Assembly: GCA_035289305.1 (NCBI GenBank)
Contig: DATDXN010000016.1
Span: forward strand, 18,315-82,314
Length of the DNA: 64,000 bases
Reading direction: 5' to 3'
Origin: Patescibacteria group bacterium
Lineage (GTDB): Bacteria > Patescibacteriota > Microgenomatia > UBA1406 > HO2-37-13b
The notes beneath the pieces are model-generated. The model saw only the letters and a program-made list of their open reading frames with translations. It searched no databases and was not told the origin of the DNA. Below are positions 26,405-44,006 of the stretch, piece after piece. The position numbers and the translations under genes are program-made. Positions within the stretch are counted from its first letter, which is position 1. Every line of letters starts with the position of its first letter.

Positions 26405-26898
26405 CGCGTACTCACCGTCATGGTGAAATTTTGGACACGCGGTCCGTGTTTAACTACCGTAACACTCTCAATAGTAAAATTTACTCGTATTGTGTTCTTG
26501 CCTCCACTGTTTCCAATTCTTTTGAATGTAAGATTAGTTAAACGAGTATTAACACTATTTAGTTGATTTGTCCCATTATTGTTTATTATCACGAGATTCC
26601 CACCCTGCAACTGGTATGTGTTATCTACACCAGAAAGTACTATAGCCATAGTACTGTCTGATGAACCCAGTGCTGGAGAAATAATAGCCTCGCTTCTCTC
26701 TATGTCGTACATGAGACGAGTCAAAATGAAACGCCCATCTATAGACACGGCAGACGTCGTCTCTGCCTCAAGACGAGTTTCAAGCGATGTAACAAATATG
26801 TTGGTTAAAATAATAAAAAAAACAGAGAGAAAAAGCATATAGATAATAAGTTCAACGATTGTTGTCCCTTTGTTCGTTGTTGCAAACTGTATGTTCAT
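26401..26898 (-). CDS. Minor pilin / pseudopilin
   Basis: TNKG|TTIVELIIYMLFL is a prepilin motif with E at +5. Confidence 0.75.
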   Translation of the reverse strand: MNIQFATTNKGTTIVELIIYMLFLSVFFIILTNIFVTSLETRLEAETTSAVSIDGRFILTRLMYDIERSEAIISPALGSSDSTMAIVLSGVDNTYQLQGGNLVIINNNGTNQLNSVNTRLTNLTFKRIGNSGGKNTIRVNFTIESVTVVKHGPRVQNFTMTVSTR

Positions 26899-28805
26899 GG
26901 TGAATAGTTAACGGTAATTTCGTGAAAAATGGGAGAGGAAGTCGTATCGATTGAGGAAAGATATGCTTTGTATCTGAAGCATTGACCCGGATTTTCAAAT
27001 CCTGAACCATCATCATCAAGAGGTATGGGCGAGGAACCAGTGAAAAAACTTGTCGAAGTCCCGTCAGGCCCTACATAGATAAAATTCGCCCCGCTGCATC
27101 CTCCCCCACTTGGGTCAGCAACAGCCATTTGATACTGAATCTGTGTTCCGGGGGGCATGTTTTCGATAGTCACAAATCTATTAAAAGCCGTCATGTAGCC
27201 CGAATCAAAAATACTTGATTCAAAAGTACCCGAGTCTGTGTATAATCCTCCTGGACCCCCTTCAATAATTCTTAACTCCTGTGTAGCGTCACCAGTTATG
27301 ATGTATGAATATGCATCTCCATCCATCTCAAGCACCGTATCTACCCCACGTATACCTGACGCAATGGATATTCCTCCACAATGAACAGGATTTGATTCAT
27401 TGCTAATATCAAGCACCAGATAATTCTCTCCACCATCTCCAACAATAACAACGCGATTACCTGTGGTCACTGCAACATCTTGAGGAGTAGTCATATTATT
27501 TATTATATAAATGCCCTGTATGCCATATGTTGCCAAGTCAAGAATATAAAATTGCCCTCCCGCAGTTGGATACTGTTGATTGATAATATATAGCCGTGTT
27601 CCAGTCGAGTTAATGGCTAACCCCTTCCCTCTTCCTGCTAAATTAAGGTTTAGTATCAATGTAAGATTGGCAGGATTGCTCACGTCTATAATCTGAAGAT
27701 CAACAATATTTCCATATACCGGTATATATGCTTTGCCATTTGCAACCACTATAGATTCCGACGCCGCCTGATAACTCAATGTAAAACCATCGCTGTCCAG
27801 GAGTGGACGCGATCCATTTTTACTCGTCAGATCAAAATTCCATAATGTATTTCCCTGCACCATATATCCTATATTCCCTGAAACGGTCACGTTGATCGCA
27901 TCGGTAGGTCCCGGCGCATCAAAATACCCAACCTCTGTATATGGCGATGTTGAAACGTCAATAATGACAATTTCTTTTGCATTATTATCTGTTGCAAGAT
28001 ATACATAATTTGATTGACTAAAAATATCATTTGTTTTATATCCGTCAAAAGTACCAATAATCGTCGGTACGGGAGGATTGGTATTGCTCACCGCCACGTT
28101 TGCAAACGAAACGCCTGAAGAATTATCTCCTGTTGCGGCAAATACATGGCCCTCATAGGCCGATAGCGCATTTGCCACACCATTTTTTGGCAAATCCAAC
28201 ATCACCAGAGATGGGTCGGGCTGACACCAGTCTCCCCCACCTCCTGCTCCCAATATCACTTCTCCCCCTGCGGTATTTGTCACGGCTACACCAGTTTTCA
28301 CCCCAGCATTGAAATCCGCTTCAGTCGTTTGAATAAAAGAAAGATTTTCAAAACGAGAAACATAGGTAACCTGATCAATGGAGGATGCAAATGGCAAGGA
28401 CCATGAAACGATCACTCGAACTCGTTTGGTTGATGGATCAAGCGCCCCTGAAGTGAGTGTAATTGCTCCACTTGCATCCCGATACACATCGCTTATTTCT
28501 ATCTGACGGATATATCCATTGATTGTCTCTGTCCCCGTCATCAAAACCCATGAGAAATCTGCCGATTCCTCCGGATGAAATGTTCCATTGATGGCAAAAG
28601 TGCTCCAGCCTTTTTCCCGCACGCTTCGGACTGCCTCAAATGCTTCCTTGGTCAAAGCAGTCGCTTCAAGCCTTTGAAATTGTTGGGCTTTTCCTTCCCG
28701 TGATGCAATAAAACCGGCAAAAAGCGCCGGCAGAATAATCGCTGAAATCCCGATAACAATAATAATCTCAATGAGCGACTGGCCGCGATGATACAATACC
28801 TGCAT
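26895..28805 (-). CDS. Large prepilin-type protein (636 aa) with LVIVD-like beta-propeller repeats; candidate pilus tip or adhesin subunit
   Basis: HRG|QSLIEIIIVIGI prepilin signal. It contains repeated blocks (VYLATDNNAKEIVIIDVS, LYIINQQ...FYILDL, VVIVGDGGENYLVLDIS) and Gly-rich stretches. Confidence 0.7.
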   Translation of the reverse strand: MQVLYHRGQSLIEIIIVIGISAIILPALFAGFIASREGKAQQFQRLEATALTKEAFEAVRSVREKGWSTFAINGTFHPEESADFSWVLMTGTETINGYIRQIEISDVYRDASGAITLTSGALDPSTKRVRVIVSWSLPFASSIDQVTYVSRFENLSFIQTTEADFNAGVKTGVAVTNTAGGEVILGAGGGGDWCQPDPSLVMLDLPKNGVANALSAYEGHVFAATGDNSSGVSFANVAVSNTNPPVPTIIGTFDGYKTNDIFSQSNYVYLATDNNAKEIVIIDVSTSPYTEVGYFDAPGPTDAINVTVSGNIGYMVQGNTLWNFDLTSKNGSRPLLDSDGFTLSYQAASESIVVANGKAYIPVYGNIVDLQIIDVSNPANLTLILNLNLAGRGKGLAINSTGTRLYIINQQYPTAGGQFYILDLATYGIQGIYIINNMTTPQDVAVTTGNRVVIVGDGGENYLVLDISNESNPVHCGGISIASGIRGVDTVLEMDGDAYSYIITGDATQELRIIEGGPGGLYTDSGTFESSIFDSGYMTAFNRFVTIENMPPGTQIQYQMAVADPSGGGCSGANFIYVGPDGTSTSFFTGSSPIPLDDDGSGFENPGQCFRYKAYLSSIDTTSSPIFHEITVNYSP

Positions 28806-28814
28806 AGCTTTTGA

Positions 28815-29309
28815 TTAGTTTAGTCCATACAACGATCCATAACGATTAAAATAAAACGTTTTTCTTTCATTACTTCCCATATACTCAAGTGTGAAAAAAT
28901 TGGAAGCAGGATCAAAGTTTTGCACCTCTCCCGAGAGCTTTCCAAAAGTGACAAATGAATTTGCAAAACCAATGGCTGAAAATTGCATCTGCGGGGATAA
29001 ATCAATACGAATATTTGAAGGTTCCATTGGATCGTATGTTGCGCCATGAAAAAGCGTATATCTTCCTTGTTCAAAATTTACTCCATAATCAGATGTCGAA
29101 CCTCTCCCTTCTGCATCCCCTACCATTGCCTTGATTTGTTGTTGTTTGATGTCGGCAATCAAAGTTTCTGTGGTTGTTGCAAATGTTGTTTTACCAAAAA
29201 GATTTGAAGTATTGATCGTCGAGACAGAGAGCAAAACTCCAATAATACTCAACACAATAATAAGCTCCAGAAAAGTTATCCCCTGCTGGTTTTTTCTTAT
29301 ATCACTCAT
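28815..29309 (-). CDS. Minor pilin / pseudopilin (GspH/FimT-like)
   Basis: NQQG|ITFLELIIVLSIIGVL is a prepilin motif. Confidence 0.75.
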   Translation of the reverse strand: MSDIRKNQQGITFLELIIVLSIIGVLLSVSTINTSNLFGKTTFATTTETLIADIKQQQIKAMVGDAEGRGSTSDYGVNFEQGRYTLFHGATYDPMEPSNIRIDLSPQMQFSAIGFANSFVTFGKLSGEVQNFDPASNFFTLEYMGSNERKTFYFNRYGSLYGLN

Positions 29310-29334
29310 TGCCTAAAAACACCTCTTAAGATTT

Positions 29335-30384
29335 TCATCGTGATCCTATATTGCCTATCAAATTATAAATTGGGCCGATAATTGAAAACATCATACTTCC
29401 CACCAAAACCCCGACCACAATGAGCATAATAGGTTCAAGCAAGGTAGTAATTGTTTGAAGTGTTTTTGCTACTTGATAGTCAAGATATAAAGAAACGTCT
29501 TGCATTGATTTGTCGAGAGTCCCGCTTTTTTCGCCTGCTTCGGTAATTTTAACCATCATACTTGGAATAATTCTCCCATGCATTTTAAAACCTTCTGAAA
29601 GTCTTTTTCCTCCAAGCACCATTTCTCTTGATTTACTAATCGCTTTTGCTATTTCTTTTTTCACCACCACATCTTGAGTGAGTTCAAGCGCTGTCGTGAT
29701 AGGAACACCTGATGACAGTAAGAGGAAGAGGCTCCGAGTAAAGCGTGTCAGATCTATTTGCTTTACCAGAAGAGAGATAAATGGGAGTTGAGAAAGGAAA
29801 GAAAAAAGTATTCTTTTCTTTTTGGCATACATATAAAAAAGGAAGATAACGATCAAAAGCGTGCATATGCCGGAAACAATTGGATGTTTGACGAGGATAT
29901 CCGAGATAAAAACTAAAATTCTTGTGGGAAGAGGAAGAGGTATTCTTAAGCGACTGAATACGATAAAAATCCGCGGTATCACAAATACCAGGATGACTAA
30001 AAGAACAGCCGCAAAGACAAGGAATATGAGTGCCGGATATATAAGCGCTGATCTAATTTTATCGTTAAATTCTATCTCTTTTTTGATATTTTCCCGCAGA
30101 TCTTTTAAAACCACTTCAAACGTTCCCCCTTCTTCTGCTGCTTTTAAAATGTTGGTGGTAACTTTATCAAAAACATGGGGAAATTTAGAAAAAGAAATAT
30201 ATACATGTTTCCCCTGCATCAAATCTTCTCTCACGGTTTCCAGAATCTTCTTTTGATTACCTTTTGCATCAATAAGCAACGCATCTACAGCTTCAAGAAT
30301 AGGAATACCAGCGATAAGCATCGTTGCAAAATTGCTGATGAGTGTCAGTTTGTCACTTGATGATAACGTAATAGTTTTGAACAT
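29335..30384 (-). CDS. pilC: Type IV pilus / type II secretion platform protein (GspF/PilC family)
   Basis: The 349-aa ORF has tandem T2SS-F domains and several TM segments. Confidence 0.85.
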   Translation of the reverse strand: MFKTITLSSSDKLTLISNFATMLIAGIPILEAVDALLIDAKGNQKKILETVREDLMQGKHVYISFSKFPHVFDKVTTNILKAAEEGGTFEVVLKDLRENIKKEIEFNDKIRSALIYPALIFLVFAAVLLVILVFVIPRIFIVFSRLRIPLPLPTRILVFISDILVKHPIVSGICTLLIVIFLFYMYAKKKRILFSFLSQLPFISLLVKQIDLTRFTRSLFLLLSSGVPITTALELTQDVVVKKEIAKAISKSREMVLGGKRLSEGFKMHGRIIPSMMVKITEAGEKSGTLDKSMQDVSLYLDYQVAKTLQTITTLLEPIMLIVVGVLVGSMMFSIIGPIYNLIGNIGSR

Positions 30385-30390
30385 AGATGG

Positions 30391-32082
30391 TTATACGTCA
30401 ACTCTCGTTACTCGAAGCACCTCCTCGAGCGTCGTAATACCCTTTTTCACTTTTTCAAGCCCGTCATCAAGCATTGTCGTCATTCCTTCAGTACTTGCTT
30501 CCTGCGCAATCATATCGGCATCATTTTTCTCCGTGATGAGTTTGCGTATTTTGTTGGTTATCTCAAGCACTTCAAAAACTGCTATTCGCTCCGAGTACCC
30601 TGTAAAACGGCAAATTTTGCATCCTTTTCCCTTATATAGTTGTATTTCGCTCTTGTTTCCAAATAATTTTTTCATAATTTCCAGCGGAATTTTTCCGACA
30701 AGATCATTTTGATGAACAGTCAATGAAGAATTACACATCTCGCAAATCCTGCGCAGTAACCTCTGGGCAATAATGATATTGACGGTGGAACCAACAAGAA
30801 ACGGCTCAACTTTCATATCAATAAGCCGAGGAAGAGCAGTTGCCGCATTGTTTGTATGGAGTGTTGAAAGAACCAGATGACCGGTCAAAGCAGCATTTAC
30901 CGCAATTCCCGCTGTTTCATTATCTCTAATTTCTCCAACAAATATGATGTTTGGATCTTGGCGCAGGATTGACCGAAGTCCGTTTGCAAAGGTAAGGTTG
31001 GTTTTGGGATTGGCTTGAATTTGATTTACTCCGCGGATGCGATATTCCACCGGGTCCTCTATGGTGGTAATATTTCTGTCTCTGGTGTTTAAGATTTTGA
31101 GAATTGCGTAGATGGTACTTGTTTTTCCTGATCCTGTCGGACCTGTTGCCAAAATCATACCAAAAGATTTATTCATAACACCCTCTACTTTCCGCAAATC
31201 TTTCTCCCCCATGCCTAAATCTATGAGCGTAAATCGGCGCGACTGGGAAGCAAGTAGTCGCAGCACAACCTTTTCTCCTTCGGCGATAGGAATTATGGAA
31301 ACACGAATGTCGAGATTCTCATCGGTCACATTTATGCGCATCTTTCCATCCTGCGCACTCAAATGTTCGTCTGTCCGAAGTTTCGAGAGTACTTTTATTC
31401 GCGCAATAATTTGCTCATGAATATTTTTTGGGAGTCTTACCGTATCGTGGAGTACCCCATCTATCCGAAAACGCACTAAACTGGCATCTTCTATAGCCTC
31501 AATATGTATATCTGACGCCTTATCCTGATATGCGTCATTTATGATGATATCAACAATCTGCGCAATAGGAGCTTCGTTTGTTTTGTGTAATTTTGTTCCA
31601 ATGCCTTGTGCATTAATAAGCTCATTAATTGTTTTTTGTACATCCTTTTTATATATACGAAATGCGTTGCTAATATCTCTTTCAGTGGCGAAATAAGGAA
31701 TAACTTTGGATCCTGTCTTTTTTGCAATGACTCGCTGTATTTCACCATCGGATGGATCTTGCATGGCTATTTTGACACTTTCTTTATCTCGAGCAAAAGG
31801 GATAACCTTGTATTTCCGAGCAACACTCTCGGGAATAATATGAAAGACTTCATCGGAAATGAACGTTTTGGAAAGGATTACAAACGGGAGCTTAAAAAAA
31901 TCAGCAATAAGAAGACCTAGATTTGCGTCTGATATAATATCTTGCTCCACAAGTACATTTTGAAGAGGACTCTTATTTTCGTGGGCAAGACGAACGAGCT
32001 CTTCTAGCTTCTTTGCGTCGACTAACCCCTTCTGTGTAATAAGCTGTTTGAGATTTTCATCGGTAATAACCATATATTTCAA
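30391..32082 (-). CDS. pilB: Type IV pilus assembly ATPase (GspE/PilB family)
   Basis: Walker A GPTGSGKTST, a tetracysteine motif (CEMC...CKIC) and a GspE N-terminal domain. Confidence 0.9.
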   Translation of the reverse strand: MKYMVITDENLKQLITQKGLVDAKKLEELVRLAHENKSPLQNVLVEQDIISDANLGLLIADFFKLPFVILSKTFISDEVFHIIPESVARKYKVIPFARDKESVKIAMQDPSDGEIQRVIAKKTGSKVIPYFATERDISNAFRIYKKDVQKTINELINAQGIGTKLHKTNEAPIAQIVDIIINDAYQDKASDIHIEAIEDASLVRFRIDGVLHDTVRLPKNIHEQIIARIKVLSKLRTDEHLSAQDGKMRINVTDENLDIRVSIIPIAEGEKVVLRLLASQSRRFTLIDLGMGEKDLRKVEGVMNKSFGMILATGPTGSGKTSTIYAILKILNTRDRNITTIEDPVEYRIRGVNQIQANPKTNLTFANGLRSILRQDPNIIFVGEIRDNETAGIAVNAALTGHLVLSTLHTNNAATALPRLIDMKVEPFLVGSTVNIIIAQRLLRRICEMCNSSLTVHQNDLVGKIPLEIMKKLFGNKSEIQLYKGKGCKICRFTGYSERIAVFEVLEITNKIRKLITEKNDADMIAQEASTEGMTTMLDDGLEKVKKGITTLEEVLRVTRVDV

Positions 32083-32459
32083 GAAGGTGTAGAGCGTCCT
32101 ATGATATTCATAATTTTTGCTTTAAGATTTGCGAAATCAAAAGAACTTTTATCCACATAATCCAGAGCACCTAATTGTTTTGCCTTTTTTACATCTTCTT
32201 CCTGTCCCAGCGTTGAAAAAATAATAACCGGAATTTTTTTGAGCGTGGAGTCTTGCGACATGTCTTTGAGCATTTCAAATCCATCTTTTTTCGGCATGAT
32301 GATATCGAGAATGATAAGGGACGGTATGATCTCTCGCGCTTTTTGAAGTCCTTCCTCTCCATTGGATGCGGTATAAACTTCCATCCCTTCTTCTTTCAGC
32401 TTTGAGGTGTAAAATTTTTGGAAAAAAACGTCATCCTCTACAAGGAGTATCTTAGTCAT
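32079..32459 (-). CDS. Single-domain response regulator (CheY-like receiver)
   Basis: KILLVEDD, the phosphoacceptor region ...IILDIIMPKKDGFE, and a conserved K in KIPVIIFS. Its start overlaps the pilB stop at ATGA. Confidence 0.8.
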   Translation of the reverse strand: MTKILLVEDDVFFQKFYTSKLKEEGMEVYTASNGEEGLQKAREIIPSLIILDIIMPKKDGFEMLKDMSQDSTLKKIPVIIFSTLGQEEDVKKAKQLGALDYVDKSSFDFANLKAKIMNIIGRSTPS

Positions 32460-35848: not shown

Positions 35849-36910
35849 TTAGTCATTTAACCAGAATACAACCTGATTTTTTAATTGGAGAGAAAGCCTA
35901 TAAGCATTTGCGTGACCAAGATACCCAAGGTAAGATTGAACCGATTGATTCAATAACCCAGAAGATATTTTATTCATCTTGTAAAGTTGAACTTTTTGGT
36001 AAATCTTTTTAAATATTCTTCTTTTTGTCTTTGTTCTGGGTAAAACGAAGTGAGGAAAGATTACATATCCCAAAAAGTCTACGCCCAGATAATAGTTCTT
36101 TATTTCGATTTTTTGTGGATGTAATGATAACGTCAATTTAGAATTGAGAAATTCCTTTATACTTGTTATTAACCCTTCGAGGTATTCCCTACTCTCTGAC
36201 AAAATTATAAAATCATCCGCATAACGAATGTAATATTCTACTTTAAGTTCATGTTTTATATAGCGATCTAAAGGATCGAGGTAAATGTTAGCAAATAATT
36301 GTGAAGTGAGATTACCAATTGGCATACCCTTGGGAAATTTCAGATCTGTTGTAAATTCTGAACTAAAACTACTGACAATTTCTTTTAATAACCACAAAAA
36401 GTCTTCGTCCTGAATTCTTTTGTTCAGTAATTTTATAAGTATCTCGTGATCAACATTGGCAAAAAACTTTTTAATGTCGCATTTTAAAGCAAACAATGGA
36501 AAAGTATTATTTTTACTTGCCTTCCTTGAAAATCTGATAAATGCCTCAATGGCTTTAAGAGTTCCTTTTTCTCTGCGGCAGGAATACGAATGAGTATAAA
36601 ATGTTGAATCAAATATTTTTTCTAATAATCTGCTTGCGAGATGGTGAACAACCCTATCTTTCACACAAGCTTTTGATATGTGGCGGACTTTCGGATCCCT
36701 AATATAAAATGATTTATATCCACCATGCTCGTATGTTTTATTTTGCAAGTTTTGATGCAACTCGAATAGGTTATCTTCTAAAAATCTTGCAAAAGCTACA
36801 ACATCGGTTTTTTTCTTTTTGCCGATTATAAACTCGTCCCACGCTTGGAAAACAGCTTCAATCGTGCTACTATGAGAGTAGATGGTATGCCAAATTCTCA
36901 TGGTTTTCAA
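35849..36910 (-). CDS. Diversity-generating retroelement (DGR) reverse transcriptase
   Basis: YADD box (YIRYADDFIIL) and the DGR-specific motif-4 PIGNLTSQLFANIYL (I/LGxxxSQ). The N-terminus KKKKTDVVAFARFLEDNLFELHQNLQNKTYEHGGYKSFYIRDPKVRHIS is typical of DGR RTs. Length is about 350 aa. Confidence 0.85.
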   Translation of the reverse strand: MKTMRIWHTIYSHSSTIEAVFQAWDEFIIGKKKKTDVVAFARFLEDNLFELHQNLQNKTYEHGGYKSFYIRDPKVRHISKACVKDRVVHHLASRLLEKIFDSTFYTHSYSCRREKGTLKAIEAFIRFSRKASKNNTFPLFALKCDIKKFFANVDHEILIKLLNKRIQDEDFLWLLKEIVSSFSSEFTTDLKFPKGMPIGNLTSQLFANIYLDPLDRYIKHELKVEYYIRYADDFIILSESREYLEGLITSIKEFLNSKLTLSLHPQKIEIKNYYLGVDFLGYVIFPHFVLPRTKTKRRIFKKIYQKVQLYKMNKISSGLLNQSVQSYLGYLGHANAYRLSLQLKNQVVFWLND

Positions 36911-37264
36911 TCAAATAACCGAACTTTTGATTTTCCTATTTTTCAAAAAATATACGAAACATATAAACGTTTCTATTGTTATCTCGTCAATTTTCCCAAA
37001 AAAGATAAATATACCCTTGGTCAACGTTGCGAGAATGCGCTTTTGGATTTTTTAGAAACTATCGTAATAGCAGGAGGATTATCTAAAACTGAAAAATTTC
37101 CTGTATTGCAAAAGGCAAGTACAAAGCTTGATTTAGCAAAAATATTCATAAGATTGTGTAAAGATTTAAAAATTCTTGATAATAAAAAATACCTTGAACT
37201 GGAATCTTCTCTCCAAGAAATAGGCAGGATGCTTGGTGGTTGGATTAAATCCTCCTCCACTTAA
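36887..37264 (+). CDS. avd: Accessory variability determinant (Avd), a four-helix-bundle protein
   Basis: FPKKDKYTLGQRCENALLDF...LDLAKIFIRL...LQEIGRMLGGWIKSS matches the four-helix-bundle/Avd family. It is encoded antisense to the RT, TR and target. Confidence 0.7.
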   Translation: MPNSHGFQSNNRTFDFPIFQKIYETYKRFYCYLVNFPKKDKYTLGQRCENALLDFLETIVIAGGLSKTEKFPVLQKASTKLDLAKIFIRLCKDLKILDNKKYLELESSLQEIGRMLGGWIKSSST

Positions 37265-37274
37265 AGAAAATAAT

Positions 37275-37395
37275 ACTACCGCAACACGGAAACCGATGTT
37301 ATCGTTCGAGTTATCAGGTTGATTCCAATTGGCGTTCCCAGCACCACCGAGGTCAGAGTTACCAACCATGAGACGGTTCGAACCACCGGACTCAC
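37275..37395 (-). repeat. DGR template repeat (TR), 121-bp core
   Basis: It aligns base-for-base with 37821-37941. The minus-sense TR has A wherever the variable repeat differs, and is Asn-codon rich (VGNSDLGGAGNANWNQPDNSNDNIGF). Confidence 0.8.
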
Positions 37396-37760
37396 GCGTG
37401 TATTGCCCCTTTTCTTTCCTGAAGTAAGTATGACCTACTTCATTGTTACCACTGAATGTTAATCCAAAACACCTTATCTTTATATTCGAACCGAGATGGT
37501 CTTTAGACATTAAAGACTATCTCCTGTATTTAACATGGCTCAATCATTTCTTATTGATGCCTTCAAAAAGGGACAAGTAGTTTCATCTTCCTATTTGCTC
37601 TCTTTTGACAGGCGTACCCATCAAAACTCGGGCTTTAAATAAAAAGTGAGATTTCGTGAGATGTAGGCGTACCCACATCTGCATTAACAAAATCTATTGT
37701 GAAGCATAAAGAAGAATAAGGAAAAAATCAAGTGTAAATGCTATTTCTATTTATAGTCAT

Positions 37761-37778
37761 CTTTTAAAATTTTAAAAG
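37761..37778. other. Perfect 18-nt AT palindrome about 29 nt downstream of the target stop codon; a possible DGR hairpin or terminator
   Basis: CTTTTAAAATTTTAAAAG read directly from the sequence. Confidence 0.4.
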
Positions 37779-37806
37779 AGACCAAAAGAACCAAAGATTC
37801 AAAGTA

Positions 37807-40410
37807 TTAAGAACCGAAAACTACCGCAACACGGAAGCCGATGTAACCGCCCGAGGTCCCAGGCCGATCCCAATCGGCGTTCCCAGCACCACCGAGGTCA
37901 GAGCGACCAACCAGGAGACGGCGCGAACCACCGGACTCACGATATTCATCTTCTACCCACTCATAGGTATTAGTCTGTCCCCATCCTTCACGATTACCCA
38001 ATAAATTCCATTCTAAAGCTCTTAATAGTCGCATATCTGCTCTACCTACCAAACCAACGGTGGAGAGCACATCAGAGGTGATCCTCTGTATACCGTCTTG
38101 AGCAGTATTCCAGGTGATTTTGAATCTGTCAGAAAAACCAAGCATGGTAGTAATAGGGGTTTGGGCATAGTGGTTGCCAAAAGCTGGTTTCTCAAGGGTT
38201 TCAACAGCCATCCATTGTCCCGGCAAGGTTGGGAAATTGATTTTGTCTGCCTTTACCTCTTTCCAATACCACTTCATCAAGTTTCTTACCTTCGTGTGGT
38301 CAGCTTTGTCTGTATCTGATAATGACTCATATGGCTTCCAGTTGGGGTAATGAACATTTAATTCTTGTAAATACTCCTCAACGCTTTTATTGCGTAAGCT
38401 GCTTTGCAGTAAATCGAGCTTTGGGATAAAACGTAAAATCATACCAAGATCTTCTAATTTTCTCTTTACTTCTGGAGTAACATCAGCAGGGAGCGGCGCA
38501 ATATCTACGTGAGTACCCAATATATCCTGCCAAGCTCTTTGCTCGGCAACTTGTATTTCCGACACGGCCTCTTGCCTTCCTGCTCCTGTATCGACAGTAT
38601 CTCCCATTGGATCTTCATTACCGAGCGCTACCTCTCCTGCCATTTCCGAAGGAAGAATATAACTCTTGTCTTGATGAGGAATTTCAACCTGTATATCGGC
38701 CGTTGTGTCGGTGATTAGACCAAAAGCACGAAAGATTTTTTGTAGAGTTCGTCTCTCTTCTGGAACACTCATCGTTTTGGGATCCGTGACAAACTCACGA
38801 AGTTTATCGCTCATATAATGAGCAAAGTTTTGTCCTCTGGCAGAAGCCAGTTCCCATTCACCAAAGAGTTTAAAGAGCGTCCCTGGGTCAAGAAAATTGG
38901 TATTCAACGTTGTATCAGTGTTTCTTTGAGCATCAATGCCAAGAAGAGTCCTCATTTTTGTCGAAAAACCTTCAAAGTCGCGGTTGTGAATCCTTTGCAT
39001 CATTTCTGCAGCTTTAGTCAATTGTTCAACATATTTAACCTCATTCTGGCTCAGTTTTAATACTCCGCTTTCTGAAATTAACTTTGCCCGGATAATATCA
39101 TTCATCTCAGAAGCAGGCATATAACTTACTTCAACTCCTGTTAACTCACGAAGGATTGCAGGATCCATTTCTTCACGCTGCTTGGTCCTTTCATCTTTGG
39201 GATTTCCTGTAAAAACTTCAATAAAATTATTGGTTACATCAAAAACCTGTCCGTTAAAGCCGGGTATCTGGATCCGGTCCCCTGCACGGGCACCCATCAT
39301 GAATTTTGCAGCTAGTTGTGTTCTGGTTGAACCCCCGGTGTATTCCTCATGAATAACACCCACACCTCTTTCCAATGCTTTGGGTACAGGTCCTGGTTTC
39401 ATACCGCTCTGCACACCACCTAGTTCATCAGTCCATAACTCCCTGTACCCGAAAAGGTCGCGGGGAGTTGTGCCTTCATGCCAGTTAATAAGCTCATAGC
39501 CGCCTGTAAGATTGTTAAGAGCATAAAAAGCTAATTGTGTTTTACCTGTACCGGTTGAACCAACAAGAAAAATCTTTTTTCCTGCCAGTGCCTCACGGGT
39601 AATACGGTCAATCAGATGTTCTCTGGAGAGAGTCATGACAAAACCTTTCTCCTGAAGCTGTCTTTTATACTCCAATAACTTCTGCGTTTCAAGATAACCA
39701 AGAGTAGCAGGGGAGGCTGTGCCTTCAATACCTTTTTTTTGTTGTTCCAGTTCATCTAATTTACCCTGGAAAAAAGAGGTCTGATCGACTGAACTTTGAG
39801 TCAGCTTCCCGTGTTGTTGCTTATCTTCCAGATATCTTTTATACATTGCCTTCTTAAGCTTTCTGGTAACTCTGTCAATATCCCGGACCTGTCGTAGGGA
39901 TCGACGAGCTGCGTGATAGCGAGGCAACTCTTCATTGAATTCTTTTTCAAATCTGTCTCTTACTTGGGAACTTGCCAACAGTGCTGAGAGTCTGTGTTCA
40001 ATTTGCTTATGACGTTGCCCACCCTGGAGCTTATCTACATCTGGTTTGAGATGTAAAACCTCGTCAAGCTGGGTTTCCAGCTCCTCCAGTCCGCTTTTTT
40101 TACGGGGAATTTCTCTCCCATTTCCCGGTACACCCTCGGCGGTTAAATCAACATCTTTTATTTCAGCTATATCAGAAGAAGAGGGAAGGTAATATTCTTC
40201 CAGGTACCCTAATACTGCAAAACACTTATTTTGGATCTCTGCTTCAGATAACTCAGTTTGAGCAGCAGGCTGGGCTTTAGGGGAAATAAACCTTTTCCAG
40301 ACTAGAGGAGACAGGCGCTGGCGTGCTAATGGAGTAATCAACCAATCAGGAGCCGATGTTCTTGTGGGCAATAGTGTATCTGTTGCTTCCGCCATAAGTC
40401 TCTCTATCAT
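37807..40410 (-). CDS. DGR target protein: cytoplasmic P-loop (AAA+/MoxR-like) ATPase with a C-terminal C-type-lectin/FGE-fold variable domain
   Basis: Walker A KIFLVGSTGTGKTQLA. C-terminus ...YRESGGSRRLLVGRSDLGGAGNADWDRPGTSGGYIGFRVAVVFGS carries the variable repeat. No signal peptide or TM helix. Confidence 0.75.
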   Translation of the reverse strand: MIERLMAEATDTLLPTRTSAPDWLITPLARQRLSPLVWKRFISPKAQPAAQTELSEAEIQNKCFAVLGYLEEYYLPSSSDIAEIKDVDLTAEGVPGNGREIPRKKSGLEELETQLDEVLHLKPDVDKLQGGQRHKQIEHRLSALLASSQVRDRFEKEFNEELPRYHAARRSLRQVRDIDRVTRKLKKAMYKRYLEDKQQHGKLTQSSVDQTSFFQGKLDELEQQKKGIEGTASPATLGYLETQKLLEYKRQLQEKGFVMTLSREHLIDRITREALAGKKIFLVGSTGTGKTQLAFYALNNLTGGYELINWHEGTTPRDLFGYRELWTDELGGVQSGMKPGPVPKALERGVGVIHEEYTGGSTRTQLAAKFMMGARAGDRIQIPGFNGQVFDVTNNFIEVFTGNPKDERTKQREEMDPAILRELTGVEVSYMPASEMNDIIRAKLISESGVLKLSQNEVKYVEQLTKAAEMMQRIHNRDFEGFSTKMRTLLGIDAQRNTDTTLNTNFLDPGTLFKLFGEWELASARGQNFAHYMSDKLREFVTDPKTMSVPEERRTLQKIFRAFGLITDTTADIQVEIPHQDKSYILPSEMAGEVALGNEDPMGDTVDTGAGRQEAVSEIQVAEQRAWQDILGTHVDIAPLPADVTPEVKRKLEDLGMILRFIPKLDLLQSSLRNKSVEEYLQELNVHYPNWKPYESLSDTDKADHTKVRNLMKWYWKEVKADKINFPTLPGQWMAVETLEKPAFGNHYAQTPITTMLGFSDRFKITWNTAQDGIQRITSDVLSTVGLVGRADMRLLRALEWNLLGNREGWGQTNTYEWVEDEYRESGGSRRLLVGRSDLGGAGNADWDRPGTSGGYIGFRVAVVFGS
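37821..37941 (-). repeat. DGR variable repeat (VR) at the 3' end of the target gene
   Basis: 17 mismatches against the TR across 121 bp. 15 are at positions where the TR coding strand has A; the other 2 are non-A changes, one near the 3' (IMH-like) end. Confidence 0.8.
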
Positions 40411-40444
40411 TATACCAGATTTTTATAGTTGTTAACTACTGGCA

Positions 40445-43102
40445 CTATAGTTTTGATAATTGTTTCATTAATAATTTATGTCTTACCAGAGTGGCTTCCC
40501 TCACGTCATCAATTACAACTGCTGTATCCGGGTCTGCCGGATCATGGCAGACAATTTTAATATCCTGCGCCTCGCTTCCAAATCCTATACCTTGCACTAC
40601 AACACCGGCTGCCCGAAGCTCTTTAATTTCGTTGATACATCCGGCCTGATCGTCTACATCACCGTCTGAAACAACAGTCAAAACTTTCGCATAACCTCCT
40701 TTTTTAATCTTTTGTAAAGTGGCAGGATCCAGTGCTTCCCGATATTGTTTTAATGATTCACGAAGACCTCTTGATGACTGATTATGTGATTTTAACACAC
40801 CGTCAAGCTCAACAAGACCTCTTTCAGTAATAAAATCTGTGGATTCTTGGGCAACAGAAGTCCAATCACCAAATACTGCCACTCTTGATTTAACTGCCAA
40901 AGGTGTAGTCATACATCCTCTGTATCGGGAAAGTCCCAGTCGTTCATTAAGATTTTTAATGTTATATTCACTGCTTAGCACCATCTTCCGCTGTTCATCA
41001 GCAGGCAGGCCGCTCATTGACCCGGAAATATCCAGAATAAAATCATCTTCAAAAACAGAAACTTCTACTCGTTCTTTTTGTCTTACGTGTGACATCTGGT
41101 ACCCCAAAGGGTCATCCTCGTACGAACGAATATCGACAAATGCTGTCACAGAATCATCCAAAATTTCACCTTCGCTCTGTCTCACAGGACCTTTATATAC
41201 CTGCTGGGGAATTTCCCTGCGTTTATAAAGTAAATCAAATAACTGTCGCCATTCATCGTATATGGTACTTTGTCTGTGACTGATACTGGACTGCGCAGGA
41301 ACTGGAGTTCTGTTGACCCCGTTAATCCAGGTTTCCAGCTGATGCCACTGCTCCCATGCAATTCCTTTTTCCTGCTCAAACTGCTTGGCAGCTAATTCTT
41401 CCGGAGTGGGAGGTTGAATTGTTTGTTGATCTTGTTGAGAAAATTCTTGGTACAATTTTTCTATTTCCTCTTGGCTTAATTCAGATTGACCAACTAAAGA
41501 TTCTCCAAAATCCCCTTCAAGAGGTTCCTGATCACTATCCTGTTCTTCCTGCTTATCCTGTTTTTTTGCAGGTGTGGCATCCATACCTTTATGTATCCAT
41601 ATTTCCTTATCGGGATCCCAAACCTCTCCCCAGGCATGTTTATCCATTCCTTTAGCCTCAACAATTGCAAAATCAAAACGAGGATCTTTACTCCCTACAT
41701 AAGACCCTGTTGCAATACGGGAAGCAATCCTTATCCTTTTACACAGTTCATCCCGAAAAATATTTGCCCAGTAACAGTGGGCAATCCCTGTCTCGGTCAT
41801 TTTAGTCCAGAGTTCCTGTGGGAATACAGATAAATACAGGGAATCAATTTGACCTATTTCTGCAGCATCTTCCGGGTAACGAAACTTTTTACGGACATAG
41901 AGAGCAATTTCTCGTGCTTTTTGAACATCATTCATCCAATTTTGAGAAGATAATTCATCAAGGAACTCCTGTGTCTGTGGATCAACAGCTCCTCCCACAG
42001 GGATAAGATCACGATCACTAGGGGAAACATTGAGTTGATTAGATTGTGTTTCAGTCAGAACAAAATCGAATGAAAATTTTCCTGATGCTGCTTGTCTTTG
42101 TGTTCTGGGGTCAAGATAAACAATACCAAGATCATCTCTCATAAAGTGGAGTGAGTTAGCTGGCTGGAGCGTAGAAACTAATGGCAGAGTTCCATAAGGA
42201 AGTTTAACAAGAACTTCCTGTCCTGGTTGTATAACCCCTTCATACGTCCTTTTGGTTTTCCACACCGATTCATCTTCAGGAGCCTCATCAATATCCCACG
42301 ATTGTTTCATGCCTGATTCCTTAACAATTTGCCTTGTGCTTGGATCGTAGCGACATACCTGTTCTCTATAGTAGCCCCCGTAAAAAGGAGTAACTCTAAC
42401 AGCAATATCTGCCTCCTGAATAGGTTCTTTATCGTCGTTGATATCTTGAGTTTGAAATGGTCGATATTCAAACTTTTGAGATTGACCTGTTTGTCTATCA
42501 GTAGCAGCGAGTTCATCAATAAGAGGTTTCAAATGAGTTGCAAAATTTTGCCCGTCAAATCGAAAGTGACGACCACAGGCGATATAATCAACTAAACTTT
42601 GACCTCGGGACTTTGGGATTTTCTTGACCGCTTGAGTTACTGCATCTGAAAGGTGGTCTGGATATCTACCTGTTAGTACGTATGTATCAAGCGCCCATTG
42701 AAATTCTTGAACAAGCGTTTGATTTTGAGAATTAATGGGTTGATCACGAAGGATATCAGGGTTACTTTCTTTCAATCTTGCTAATCCTTGCCATCTAAGG
42801 ATTGGCTCACTGGCTTCGGGATAATCACGAATTGTTTGTAACAAGATACTTGCATCTTTTCGAATTGCTTGGGTGAGTCCCAAATGACCAGCCACCTGTC
42901 GCAAAGTTGCTATGCGCGCCTGGTCTTCGTTTTGAAATAAAGTCGTATTAACGCGCAGTTTTTGGTGACCTTCTGACCAAGCCATTCTCGCGCCTGTTTT
43001 TCTGGATAACACTACTACATCGCCATATACTTTTCTTCCTTCTTCGTGAGGAATTAAAGCACTTTCAACTGATGTGATCCCGACAGACTGTCTTTCATCC
43101 AT
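40445..43102 (-). CDS. Transglutaminase-like cysteine-protease domain plus C-terminal von Willebrand factor A (VWA) domain protein
   Basis: TGase-like GIAHCYWANIFRDELCKRIRIASR and HAWGEVWDPDKEIWIHKGMDATP (Cys-His-Asp). VWA MIDAS motif DISGSMSG...TVVSDGDVDD. The start is taken at MDERQ (43100-43102), because the longer ORF would overlap the divergent rmlD-like gene. Confidence 0.65.
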   Translation of the reverse strand: MDERQSVGITSVESALIPHEEGRKVYGDVVVLSRKTGARMAWSEGHQKLRVNTTLFQNEDQARIATLRQVAGHLGLTQAIRKDASILLQTIRDYPEASEPILRWQGLARLKESNPDILRDQPINSQNQTLVQEFQWALDTYVLTGRYPDHLSDAVTQAVKKIPKSRGQSLVDYIACGRHFRFDGQNFATHLKPLIDELAATDRQTGQSQKFEYRPFQTQDINDDKEPIQEADIAVRVTPFYGGYYREQVCRYDPSTRQIVKESGMKQSWDIDEAPEDESVWKTKRTYEGVIQPGQEVLVKLPYGTLPLVSTLQPANSLHFMRDDLGIVYLDPRTQRQAASGKFSFDFVLTETQSNQLNVSPSDRDLIPVGGAVDPQTQEFLDELSSQNWMNDVQKAREIALYVRKKFRYPEDAAEIGQIDSLYLSVFPQELWTKMTETGIAHCYWANIFRDELCKRIRIASRIATGSYVGSKDPRFDFAIVEAKGMDKHAWGEVWDPDKEIWIHKGMDATPAKKQDKQEEQDSDQEPLEGDFGESLVGQSELSQEEIEKLYQEFSQQDQQTIQPPTPEELAAKQFEQEKGIAWEQWHQLETWINGVNRTPVPAQSSISHRQSTIYDEWRQLFDLLYKRREIPQQVYKGPVRQSEGEILDDSVTAFVDIRSYEDDPLGYQMSHVRQKERVEVSVFEDDFILDISGSMSGLPADEQRKMVLSSEYNIKNLNERLGLSRYRGCMTTPLAVKSRVAVFGDWTSVAQESTDFITERGLVELDGVLKSHNQSSRGLRESLKQYREALDPATLQKIKKGGYAKVLTVVSDGDVDDQAGCINEIKELRAAGVVVQGIGFGSEAQDIKIVCHDPADPDTAVVIDDVREATLVRHKLLMKQLSKL

Positions 43103-43151: not shown

Positions 43152-44006
43152 ATGAATAAAAAAATGGTAGTGGCGGCGACGGGTCTTGATGGACTCGTGG
43201 GATCACGAGTGAGAGAACTACTTGAGGATAAAATACAGTTCATACCTCTACCCAAAGAAATCATTGATATAACGAAAAAAGATTCGGTAAAACAGGCTTT
43301 ACAGTCAATTGACTTTGATATATTTCTGCATCTTGCAGCGTATACCAATGTAGACCTTGCGGAAAAAGAAAAAAGTCTAGCGTGGAGCGTTAATGTTGCG
43401 GGAACAAAAAATGTATTTGAAGTAGTTTCATCGCGTGAAAAAAAAATGATATACATCTCCACAGACTTCGTGTTTGATGGAGAAAACGCGCCATTTACCG
43501 AAGATTCTCCTCCCCGTCCCATCTCGCACTATGGCATGACGAAATATGAAGGAGAGAAAATCGTCAAAGATCATGCAATGATTGTCCGTTTCAGCTACCC
43601 TTATCGAGCATACTATGAGCCAAAAAAAGATATTGTGCGATCAATTCTTGCTGCTTTGAAAGACAAAAAACACATACAGGGAGTCGTTGATCAAATAATC
43701 ACGTTTACCTTCATTGACGATATTGCGCATGCACTACACTATCTTTTTCTCAACTATGCGCCTGAAATCTATCATGTTGTCGGAAAAGATAGTTTATCAG
43801 CCTATGATGCAATTATGACTATAGCTAAAGTTTTTGAGCTTGATACTTCTCTCGTCTCAAAAACGACATATGATGAGTTTTATAAAGGTAAAGCAAAACG
43901 TCCCAAAAAAGGAATTGTGAAATCAAAGAAAAATGTTTTTTACCCGATGAAAAGTTTAAAGGAAGGTTTAATGGAGATTAAAAAACAAAATTGTCTTTTA
44001 AAGTAA
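43152..44006 (+). CDS. dTDP-4-dehydrorhamnose reductase-like (RmlD family) NAD(P)-dependent sugar reductase
   Basis: The 284-aa ORF has the HYGMTK catalytic YxxxK region and is short-chain Rossmann-like. Confidence 0.7.
   Translation: MNKKMVVAATGLDGLVGSRVRELLEDKIQFIPLPKEIIDITKKDSVKQALQSIDFDIFLHLAAYTNVDLAEKEKSLAWSVNVAGTKNVFEVVSSREKKMIYISTDFVFDGENAPFTEDSPPRPISHYGMTKYEGEKIVKDHAMIVRFSYPYRAYYEPKKDIVRSILAALKDKKHIQGVVDQIITFTFIDDIAHALHYLFLNYAPEIYHVVGKDSLSAYDAIMTIAKVFELDTSLVSKTTYDEFYKGKAKRPKKGIVKSKKNVFYPMKSLKEGLMEIKKQNCLLK

Follow-up and report, generated by a model that had tools for sequence, protein, structure and literature searches.

A predicted cytoplasmic MoxR-class ATPase, paired with a transglutaminase-like–vWA protein, is the target of a diversity-generating retroelement in Patescibacteria

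Introduction

In bacteria that belong to the Candidate Phyla Radiation (CPR), an AAA ATPase joined to a domain of the C-type lectin (CLec) kind is the commonest architecture among the targets of diversity-generating retroelements (DGRs), according to Paul (2017) as cited by Doré (2024), and most CPR reverse transcriptases (RTs) belong to a separate RT clade (Doré, 2024). Targets of the "UVR4"/midasin-like kind, and a category g1, were recorded in the DGRs of CPR and DPANN by Wu (2018), who could not decide whether their variable repeats (VRs) lie in a CLec fold. Here we describe a DGR cassette from a 64,000-nucleotide stretch of contig DATDXN010000016.1 of a Patescibacteria group bacterium (the whole stretch is hereafter called the window), in which the diversified protein is a predicted MoxR-class ATPase and the gene just upstream encodes a transglutaminase-like (TGL) domain fused to a domain of the von Willebrand factor A (vWA) type.

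Related combinations of domains have been described in other settings. Zhang and Aravind (2012) predicted that a widespread operon of MoxR, vWA and TGL (YebA/TgpA-like) proteins carries out ATP-dependent degradation, in which the vWA protein recruits, the MoxR protein unwinds and the TGL protein cleaves. DGR-diversified FGS/CLec domains have been found inside ternary conflict systems built on vWA and MoxR proteins (VMAP, iSTAND; Kaur, 2020). A transglutaminase or vWA neighbour of the CPR AAA–CLec targets receives no mention in Doré (2024), Wu (2018), Roux (2021) or PMC11661182, a set that does not include Paul (2017) and in which the word "transglutaminase" has 0 occurrences.

Results

The complete cassette spans window positions 35849-43102, with its genes on the minus strand in the order partner, target, template repeat (TR), avd and RT from position 43102, avd being on the opposite strand. 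The target gene (37807-40410, minus strand) encodes 867 aa and begins 34 nt downstream of the partner gene. The 133-nt VR (37809-37941, minus strand) forms the extreme C-terminus of the target gene and pairs with a 133-nt TR (37264-37396, minus strand) located 410 nt 3' of the target stop codon. The repeats have 133 nt in common at 84% identity, and the TR, which abounds in AAC codons, carries an adenine at 16 of the 18 mismatches. The hypervariable codons of the VR correspond to aa 829-857 of the target (roughly 37840-37926, minus strand), after which the VR closes with a constant GFRVAVV strand and the stop codon. These positions agree with the first-pass annotation of the window, which had put the VR at the C-terminus of a protein with a Walker A motif and the start of the partner gene at 43102.

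Natural copies of the target vary where the TR would predict. The 90%-identity cluster of the target comprises nine members from different assemblies, with identities of at least 98%, one of which is named "Patescibacteria group bacterium". Their alignment contains 21 variable columns, 14 of them within the VR (aa 829-857), and 13 of these 14 fall on TR codons containing adenine; the roughly 838 residues outside the VR show only 7 changes, all singletons. The nine copies fall into three or more VR haplotypes and two cases that look like mixtures; natural populations hold several VR haplotypes on an otherwise constant protein. Differences between the near-identical copies are thus almost confined to VR codons. 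On this evidence the DGR is active in nature, and the one in the window is apparently active as well. RT, Avd and TR act together on the tip of the target's C-terminal domain, where they rewrite about 14 adenine-templated codons.

One substitution among the natural variants departs from this pattern. Residue S829 (codon at window 37924-37926) changes to F together with R830Y, and the TR codon for residue 829 is TCG, which contains no adenine; adenine mutagenesis from the TR of the window cannot account for S829F. The strains in question may carry another TR, or their assemblies may be mixed.

The target is laid out as an N-terminal region of long helices, an AAA+ module, an alpha/beta middle domain and a C-terminal variable, CLec-like domain. 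The AAA+ module (about aa 262-560; 38731-39627, minus strand) contains a Walker A motif (GKKIFLVGSTGTGKTQLA) with K290, the Walker B residue E356, the sensor-1 residue N403, and the arginines R412 and R421, all five of which are invariant in 60 homologues of 26-74% identity. Pfam AAA_5 matched aa 280-421 above its cut-off (E = 4.2e-7; 30.5 bits against 22), and bpMoxR gave a weak match below its own (12.6 bits against 27). The AlphaFold (AF2) monomer model has a mean predicted local distance difference test (pLDDT) score of 83.8, rising to about 95 for aa 615-867. When it was compared with the PDB by Foldseek, the best match was a subunit of the NorQ hexamer (9qh7_E; E = 1.3e-11), whose template modelling (TM) score, normalised to the target, was 0.81. 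NorQ and CbbQ (6l1q) accounted for all 15 of the best matches, at target-normalised TM scores of 0.73-0.81, and McrB came next. MoxR-like ATPases encoded by phages were also common among the structural matches. In a profile search of PDB sequences, the AAA domains of midasin were the nearest solved relatives (E = 1e-6), in agreement with the "UVR4/midasin" note of Wu (2018). On this modelled and domain evidence the target is best classed as a MoxR-class AAA+ ATPase of the NorQ/CbbQ-like (AAA_5) type, and the P-loop ATPase of the first-pass annotation is borne out.

The target family comprises 65 homologues, whose names indicate Patescibacteria, Roizmanbacteria, Pacebacteria and Peregrinibacteria. 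A pattern scan of the genome collection with generic P-loop patterns taken from the target alignment returned at least one true locus, from Roizmanbacteria, among the matches listed.

The partner gene (40445-43102, minus strand) encodes 885 aa, starting with MDERQ at 43102, and its product consists of an N-terminal beta/helical region, a beta-sandwich, a TGL core with Cys, His and Asp, an acidic disordered linker and a C-terminal vWA domain with a metal ion-dependent adhesion site (MIDAS). The catalytic core lies at about aa 389-511 (41570-41938, minus strand) and contains C443 (in GIAHC), H489 (in HAWGEVWDPDKEIW) and D508; the vWA domain lies at about aa 683-885 (40448-41056, minus strand) with its MIDAS formed by D691-x-S693-x-S695 (in DISGSMS) and D813. 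Transglut_core of Pfam matched above its cut-off (E = 4.5e-7), and VWA below it (E = 1.6e-3; 19.1 bits against 23.8). In Foldseek searches with the AlphaFold (AF2) model (pLDDT 76.9), the best structural match was the transglutaminase domain of TgpA (6g49; E = 4e-7), and the vWA domain matched many others, among them ANTXR, the MIDAS domain of MDN1/Rea1, and NorD in NorQD complexes, at E values of about 1e-5 to 1e-6, which confirms its vWA fold. NorQ–NorD vWA complexes were accordingly among the top structural matches of both proteins, and they supply a mechanistic precedent for the pair. Among 35 homologues, no variation was seen at C443, H489, D508, D691, S695 or D813, and very little at S693; in remote partners (loci L008-L011, L015 and L016) the Cys-His-Asp triad is kept and DxTxS replaces DxSxS. 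The partner is thus predicted, from its motifs and model, to be a TgpA-like TGL domain fused to a vWA/MIDAS domain with its catalytic residues intact, and the combination of a TGL core with a vWA/MIDAS domain agrees with the first reading of the window.

The partner family is small. We collected 38 homologues of 35-82% identity, and a profile search of 1.84 billion representative proteins gave 367 matches at E ≤ 1e-3 and 77 at E ≤ 1e-30. The stretch that links the TGL domain to the vWA domain is modelled as disordered, and its length differs among members of the family; in locus L010 (8800-8931) it contains a 66-nt tandem duplication whose copies are 94% identical. A longer ORF of 1025 aa, beginning at 43522, was rejected as the partner gene, its first 140 codons overlapping an rmlD-like neighbour and being absent from all homologues.

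Both proteins look cytoplasmic from their sequences. Hydropathy analysis revealed no transmembrane-like segment in target or partner (maximum 19-residue Kyte-Doolittle means of 0.94 and 0.92, respectively) and no N-terminal hydrophobic stretch in either. The target of this DGR is, as originally annotated, best taken as a cytoplasmic ATPase and not a surface protein.

The pairing of the two genes was followed through 14 loci (the window, L003/4, L005/6, L007, L008, L009, L010, L011, L012/13, L015, L016/17, L018, P0159 and P0046). A full-length homologue of the partner lies directly upstream of the ATPase gene on the same strand in all 14, with E ≤ 1e-124 by hidden Markov model search in the loci with DNA available, and a gap of about 10-50 nt where the two genes are adjacent; the exceptions are L016, where the partner is split into two ORFs, and L011, where one gene intervenes. 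Eleven further pairs were inferred from contigs of identical length shared by the lists of target and partner homologues. Eleven of the 14 loci include an RT; none was found in L015 (on its 11-kb contig), in P0046 (within 10 kb) or in L016/17, which looks decayed. The VR is located on the ATPase gene in each of six related loci tested, or seven of seven with the window. Even the remote branch represented by the P0159 locus, whose partner matched the profile at E = 8e-45, possesses all four genes, in the different order Avd, RT, TGL–vWA and AAA_5. The ATPase and a TGL–vWA protein with conserved catalytic and metal-binding residues are tied together genetically, and the expectation that the pair would be kept together in related DGR loci was confirmed.

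Some of these loci deviate from the common plan. L015 (8174-10411) encodes a close relative of the ATPase that is 51% identical over the N-terminal two-thirds; in place of the CLec head, its C-terminus has a motif of about 50 aa in duplicate (…YAEPTG..Q[FY][IV]ELR…). Its TGL–vWA partner is kept, and neither RT nor Avd was found on its 11-kb contig. This DGR-less pair suggests that the core of the machine consists of two genes and that its C-terminal head can be exchanged. In L016 (4174-9479), the partner is divided into ORFs of 511 aa (TGL) and 327 aa (vWA), the ATPase is cut to 575 aa, and a separate ORF of 224 aa comes next; L017 retains an Avd remnant, and a recombinase and an IS1595 transposase are encoded near L016/L017. 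L008 (12607-13566) and L009 (12658-13677) carry a second small gene of about 320-340 aa directly after the ATPase gene; it has no Pfam match, and its C-terminal VR matches the same TR, so that one DGR serves two targets. A 332-aa gene of the same kind occurs in the P0046 locus.

The variable head of the window target shows, in order, a strand with the helix LRALEWNLL, the sequence TYEWVED, a strand with LLVGRS, the VR loops and the GFRVAVV strand. This pattern (an R-L-L-x-A-x-EW helix, YEW and GFRVAV, with strands in the order beta1-alpha1-beta2-5) fits the order seen in formylglycine-generating enzyme (FGE)/CLec domains, and a CLec fold is likely on these sequence features. Across the target family, the C-terminal region falls into at least three head subtypes, each ending in a VR. 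When a profile of the head was run against 5.8 billion proteins, only fragments of the same domain were recovered, with no Pfam label. One of the sequences, P0279 (227 aa, on a 485-kb NCBI contig), is essentially the variable head alone, without an ATPase, and the head may therefore also be an independent gene in some genomes.

With respect to the remaining DGR machinery, the RT (353 aa; 35849-36910, minus strand) matches RVT_1 (E = 1.6e-24), has IGNLTSQ and YADD in its translation, and matches the generic RT model of PADLOC at 8.6e-48. The avd gene is an ORF of 139 codons (36845-37264, plus strand) with a probable start at an internal ATG near 36887, and it matches Pfam bAvd (7.3e-19) and NCBIfam DivGenRetAVD (92.6 bits; cut-off 80). 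By its sequence, the locus is a complete DGR of the Patescibacteria type. The divergent arrangement of avd and RT is common to L005, L010 and L018 and corresponds to layout "B3", found in 90% of CPR DGRs (Wu, 2018); the spacing between VR and TR is about 500-600 nt in six related loci, as in the window. The 5' end of avd overlaps that of the RT gene head-to-head (36845-36910) by 15-66 nt, depending on the start codon chosen, and its stop codon adjoins the TR, whose end it abuts on the opposite strand. Since avd lies antisense to the RT and target genes, between TR and RT, a transcript running from the TR to the RT would cross the whole avd gene in antisense.

About 100 nt 5' of the TR on the transcribed strand is a palindrome with a 14-bp stem (GAGATGGTCTTTAGAC ATT …; window 37493-37523), which may be part of the DGR RNA or the terminator of the target gene. 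An Rfam search of the window gave no matches, and a scan for promoters and terminators, together with hairpin folding downstream of the VR, did no better than shuffled sequences. A 114-aa ORF spanning the TR (37166-37510) was rejected as a gene.

The flanks of the cassette differ entirely between loci, and the cassette is therefore mobile. In L010, it is embedded among phage structural genes: those for terminase, portal and minor capsid lie to one side of it, those for major capsid and tail to the other. L012, the single IMG/VR contig with the cassette among 2.9 million, shows it at a prophage end, after tail and lysis genes and before genes for a methylase of the EcoRI type, an HNH enzyme resembling GmrSD and ThsA, a Macro-domain protein. 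The cassette abuts McrBC and a recombinase in L018, lies among conjugation genes in L007 and the P0159 locus, and has toxin–antitoxin genes beside it in L005, L009 and the P0046 locus. Ordinary chromosomal surroundings are a further context of the cassette. In the window, its neighbours are type IV pilus, DsrE-like, SHOCT-domain and sugar-nucleotide genes. The pilus region (26895-32459), a few kb from the DGR, encodes a PilB-like T2SSE ATPase, a PilC-like T2SSF protein, a pilin with an N-methylation motif, an LVIVD-repeat protein and a stand-alone response regulator. A type IV pilus set is typical surface machinery of CPR bacteria.

Discussion

The reading that we favour, at about even confidence, is that the cassette encodes a DGR-programmable MoxR–vWA–TGL machine for remodelling and cleavage, probably one used in conflicts with mobile elements. 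By analogy with NorQ–NorD, CbbQ–CbbO, midasin and the MoxR–vWA–TGL operon model, the ATPase would assemble into a ring with as many as six variable domains on display, and the partner would dock on this ring by way of its vWA/MIDAS domain. The variable heads would capture a ligand, most likely a protein, which the AAA+ ring would remodel mechanically and the TGL domain would then cleave or otherwise modify covalently. The cassette would thus follow the degradation scheme of Zhang and Aravind (2012) in a soluble form, reduced to two genes and fitted with a programmable receptor. It is on the same analogies that we infer the formation of a hexamer, the docking of the partner and the activity of the TGL domain. 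Since the cassette is frequently carried on prophages, conjugative elements and defence-type islands, its likeliest use would be the recognition of rapidly evolving proteins where cells and mobile elements are in conflict. Phage defence, which the first-pass annotation had suggested, is plausible from the genomic context. A "hypothetical AAA protein" would in this way become part of a concrete two-protein mechanism made up of capture by a variable head, ATP-driven remodelling and TGL chemistry. If this is correct, the pair would represent a compact, naturally reprogrammable intracellular platform of binder plus enzyme, and the idea of conflict systems with DGR-diversified sensors, so far tied to multicellular bacteria, would come to include the smallest cells known and the phages of those cells.

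A bolder form of the proposal can be put forward only tentatively, and we give it clearly less weight. It is conceivable that the cassette is an adaptive, retroelement-programmed machine whose six hypervariable heads pick an arbitrary intracellular protein, e.g., one from a phage or plasmid, and whose tethered cysteine peptidase or transglutaminase destroys or cross-links it. Such a machine would be the prokaryotic counterpart of degradation directed by antibodies, and the ultra-small bacteria of the CPR would owe its spread among them to phages and conjugative elements of their own.

Several observations weigh against the remodelling-and-cleavage machine. NorQ and CbbQ, the nearest structural relatives of the target, are activases and not unfoldases that feed a protease, and TGL domains can be peptidases, cross-linkers or deamidases, so that several chemistries are possible. 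No family of PADLOC-DB 2.0 matched the ATPase or the partner at E ≤ 0.01, and in the window the cassette stands between type IV pilus and sugar-nucleotide genes with no obvious defence island. The identity of the variable head, moreover, is not secured by domain searches: FGE-sulfatase of Pfam matched the C-terminal fragment of one of 17 sequences, weakly (E = 0.08), a profile of the last 135 aa gave a single weak match in the PDB (E = 1), and fold searches of the full-length target against the PDB and BFVD returned AAA+ proteins alone, and no CLec protein, among the matches listed. The FGE/CLec assignment proposed at the outset thus stands as far as motifs and the order of secondary structure are concerned, and finds little in these profile matches.

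The main rival is assembled from the same parts. In the manner of abortive infection, the variable domain would be a sensor and nothing more, and binding of a ligand would make the ATPase release or activate the TGL–vWA protein as an effector against proteins of its own cell, and the ligand itself would be left unprocessed. Doré (2024) proposed a sensor-to-MoxR-to-effector logic for DGR-linked ternary systems and noted that the AAA–CLec targets of CPR might act similarly; the defence-type neighbours in several loci (L012, L018 and L005) are consistent with such a switch, and a conserved TGL triad is what would be expected of an effector. However, we found no VMAP or other adaptor as a third component, no effector-associated domains by Pfam and no match in PADLOC. 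Sequence data do not separate a switch from delivery of a substrate, and we consider the switch unlikely, while ranking it first among the alternatives to the remodelling-and-cleavage machine.

Carriage by phages and conjugative elements raises the further possibility that the module serves the element and not the cell, either by targeting host defence proteins or rival elements or by acting as a chaperone of virion assembly like the MoxR/vWA pair of Acidianus two-tailed virus (ATV). The position of the cassette among phage structural genes in L010, its position after tail and lysis genes on the IMG/VR contig, the conjugative regions of L007 and the P0159 locus, the abundance of phage MoxR-like ATPases among the structural matches, and the precedent of ATV p618/p892 (cited in Zhang and Aravind, 2012) all argue for this. 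On the other hand, several loci, including the window, L005 and the P0046 locus, are free of phage and conjugation genes for about 10 kb around, the cassette was found in only 1 of 2.9 million IMG/VR contigs, and a prophage end beside restriction-modification and Thoeris genes is typical of cargo that benefits the host. An element-serving role therefore seems less probable still than the switch.

A role at the cell surface, in which the variable domain would lie outside the cell and bind surface molecules of a host cell, could be expected of episymbionts such as CPR bacteria, given that most other lineages use DGRs to diversify surface or tail-fibre proteins and that the cassette of the window adjoins type IV pilus and envelope-sugar genes, but we think it very improbable, since neither protein has a signal peptide or transmembrane segment by hydropathy, the partner too is soluble, and the motor to which the variable domain is fused depends on ATP, has its catalytic site intact and needs cytoplasmic ATP. 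Equally hard to credit is a housekeeping activase that matures or reactivates one enzyme in the fashion of NorQ–NorD or CbbQ–CbbO, with the DGR merely tuning the interaction: NorQ, CbbQ and NorD are the closest structures and one DGR-free pair exists (L015), but no conserved client gene accompanies the cassette, whose flanks differ in every locus, hypervariation at 14 codons among near-identical genomes does not suit a fixed client, and the conserved TGL triad has no role in such activases.

Having weighed these alternatives, we return to the remodelling-and-cleavage machine and to its place among described systems. The window locus is a member of the class of CPR/DPANN AAA–CLec targets, with which it shares the lineage, a P-loop/midasin-like AAA protein with a C-terminal VR and the divergent avd layout. 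It resembles the MoxR–vWA–TGL operon in that the same three domains are encoded together and that the best structural match of the partner is TgpA. However, the published TGL is a membrane protein of about 8 transmembrane segments, and the operon consists of three separate genes; in the window pair, everything is soluble, the TGL and vWA domains are fused, and a DGR-diversified recognition domain is attached to an ATPase of the AAA_5 family that resembles NorQ/CbbQ. Because the partner is soluble (maximum 19-residue Kyte-Doolittle mean of 0.92), the pair represents a soluble variant and not a strict member of the YebA/TgpA operon class. The VMAP/iSTAND systems (Kaur, 2020; Doré, 2024) likewise combine a DGR-diversified CLec domain with MoxR and vWA proteins and have been proposed to recognize invaders inside the cell. 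In those systems, the CLec domain is fused to the vWA protein, a third protein (VMAP or iSTAND) is part of the definition, and multicellular cyanobacteria, gammaproteobacteria or actinobacteria serve as hosts; in the window cassette, the VR is on the ATPase, the vWA protein bears the TGL domain, and the host belongs to the CPR. No third gene is conserved across the loci, and between or after the pair there are only DGR parts or the second small VR-bearing target.

Outside DGR biology, NorQ–NorD and CbbQ–CbbO offer the same two-gene logic of a MoxR-class ring and a vWA adaptor, and the ATPase reaches target-normalised TM scores of about 0.75-0.8 to 9qh7 and 6l1q. They differ in serving one fixed metalloenzyme client and in lacking a peptidase or variable domain, and sequence identity is only about 14-15%. 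Midasin/Rea1, the closest solved relative by profile, shares AAA modules and a MIDAS grip on the substrate, but it is a eukaryotic single polypeptide with six AAA modules that acts in ribosome assembly, without TGL domain or diversification. The MoxR–DUF58–transglutaminase genes of actinobacterial PFNA clusters are also said to be related. The impression recorded at the first pass, that no described system has this composition, was therefore only partly right. AAA–CLec targets of CPR, the MoxR–vWA–TGL triad, and DGR-diversified CLec domains in MoxR/vWA conflict systems of multicellular bacteria had all been described. The specific wiring, with the CLec domain on the ATPase, the TGL domain fused to the vWA domain and no third component, was not found in the literature covered. 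Four things appear undescribed there (Paul, 2017, lies outside that literature), namely the obligate TGL–vWA partner, the conservation of active sites in that partner, the structural kinship to the NorQ/NorD type and the carriage by phages and conjugative elements. DGR-diversified ATPases, reportedly the commonest DGR targets in CPR, are now linked to an obligate TGL–vWA partner and, by structural similarity, to machines of the NorQ–NorD type.

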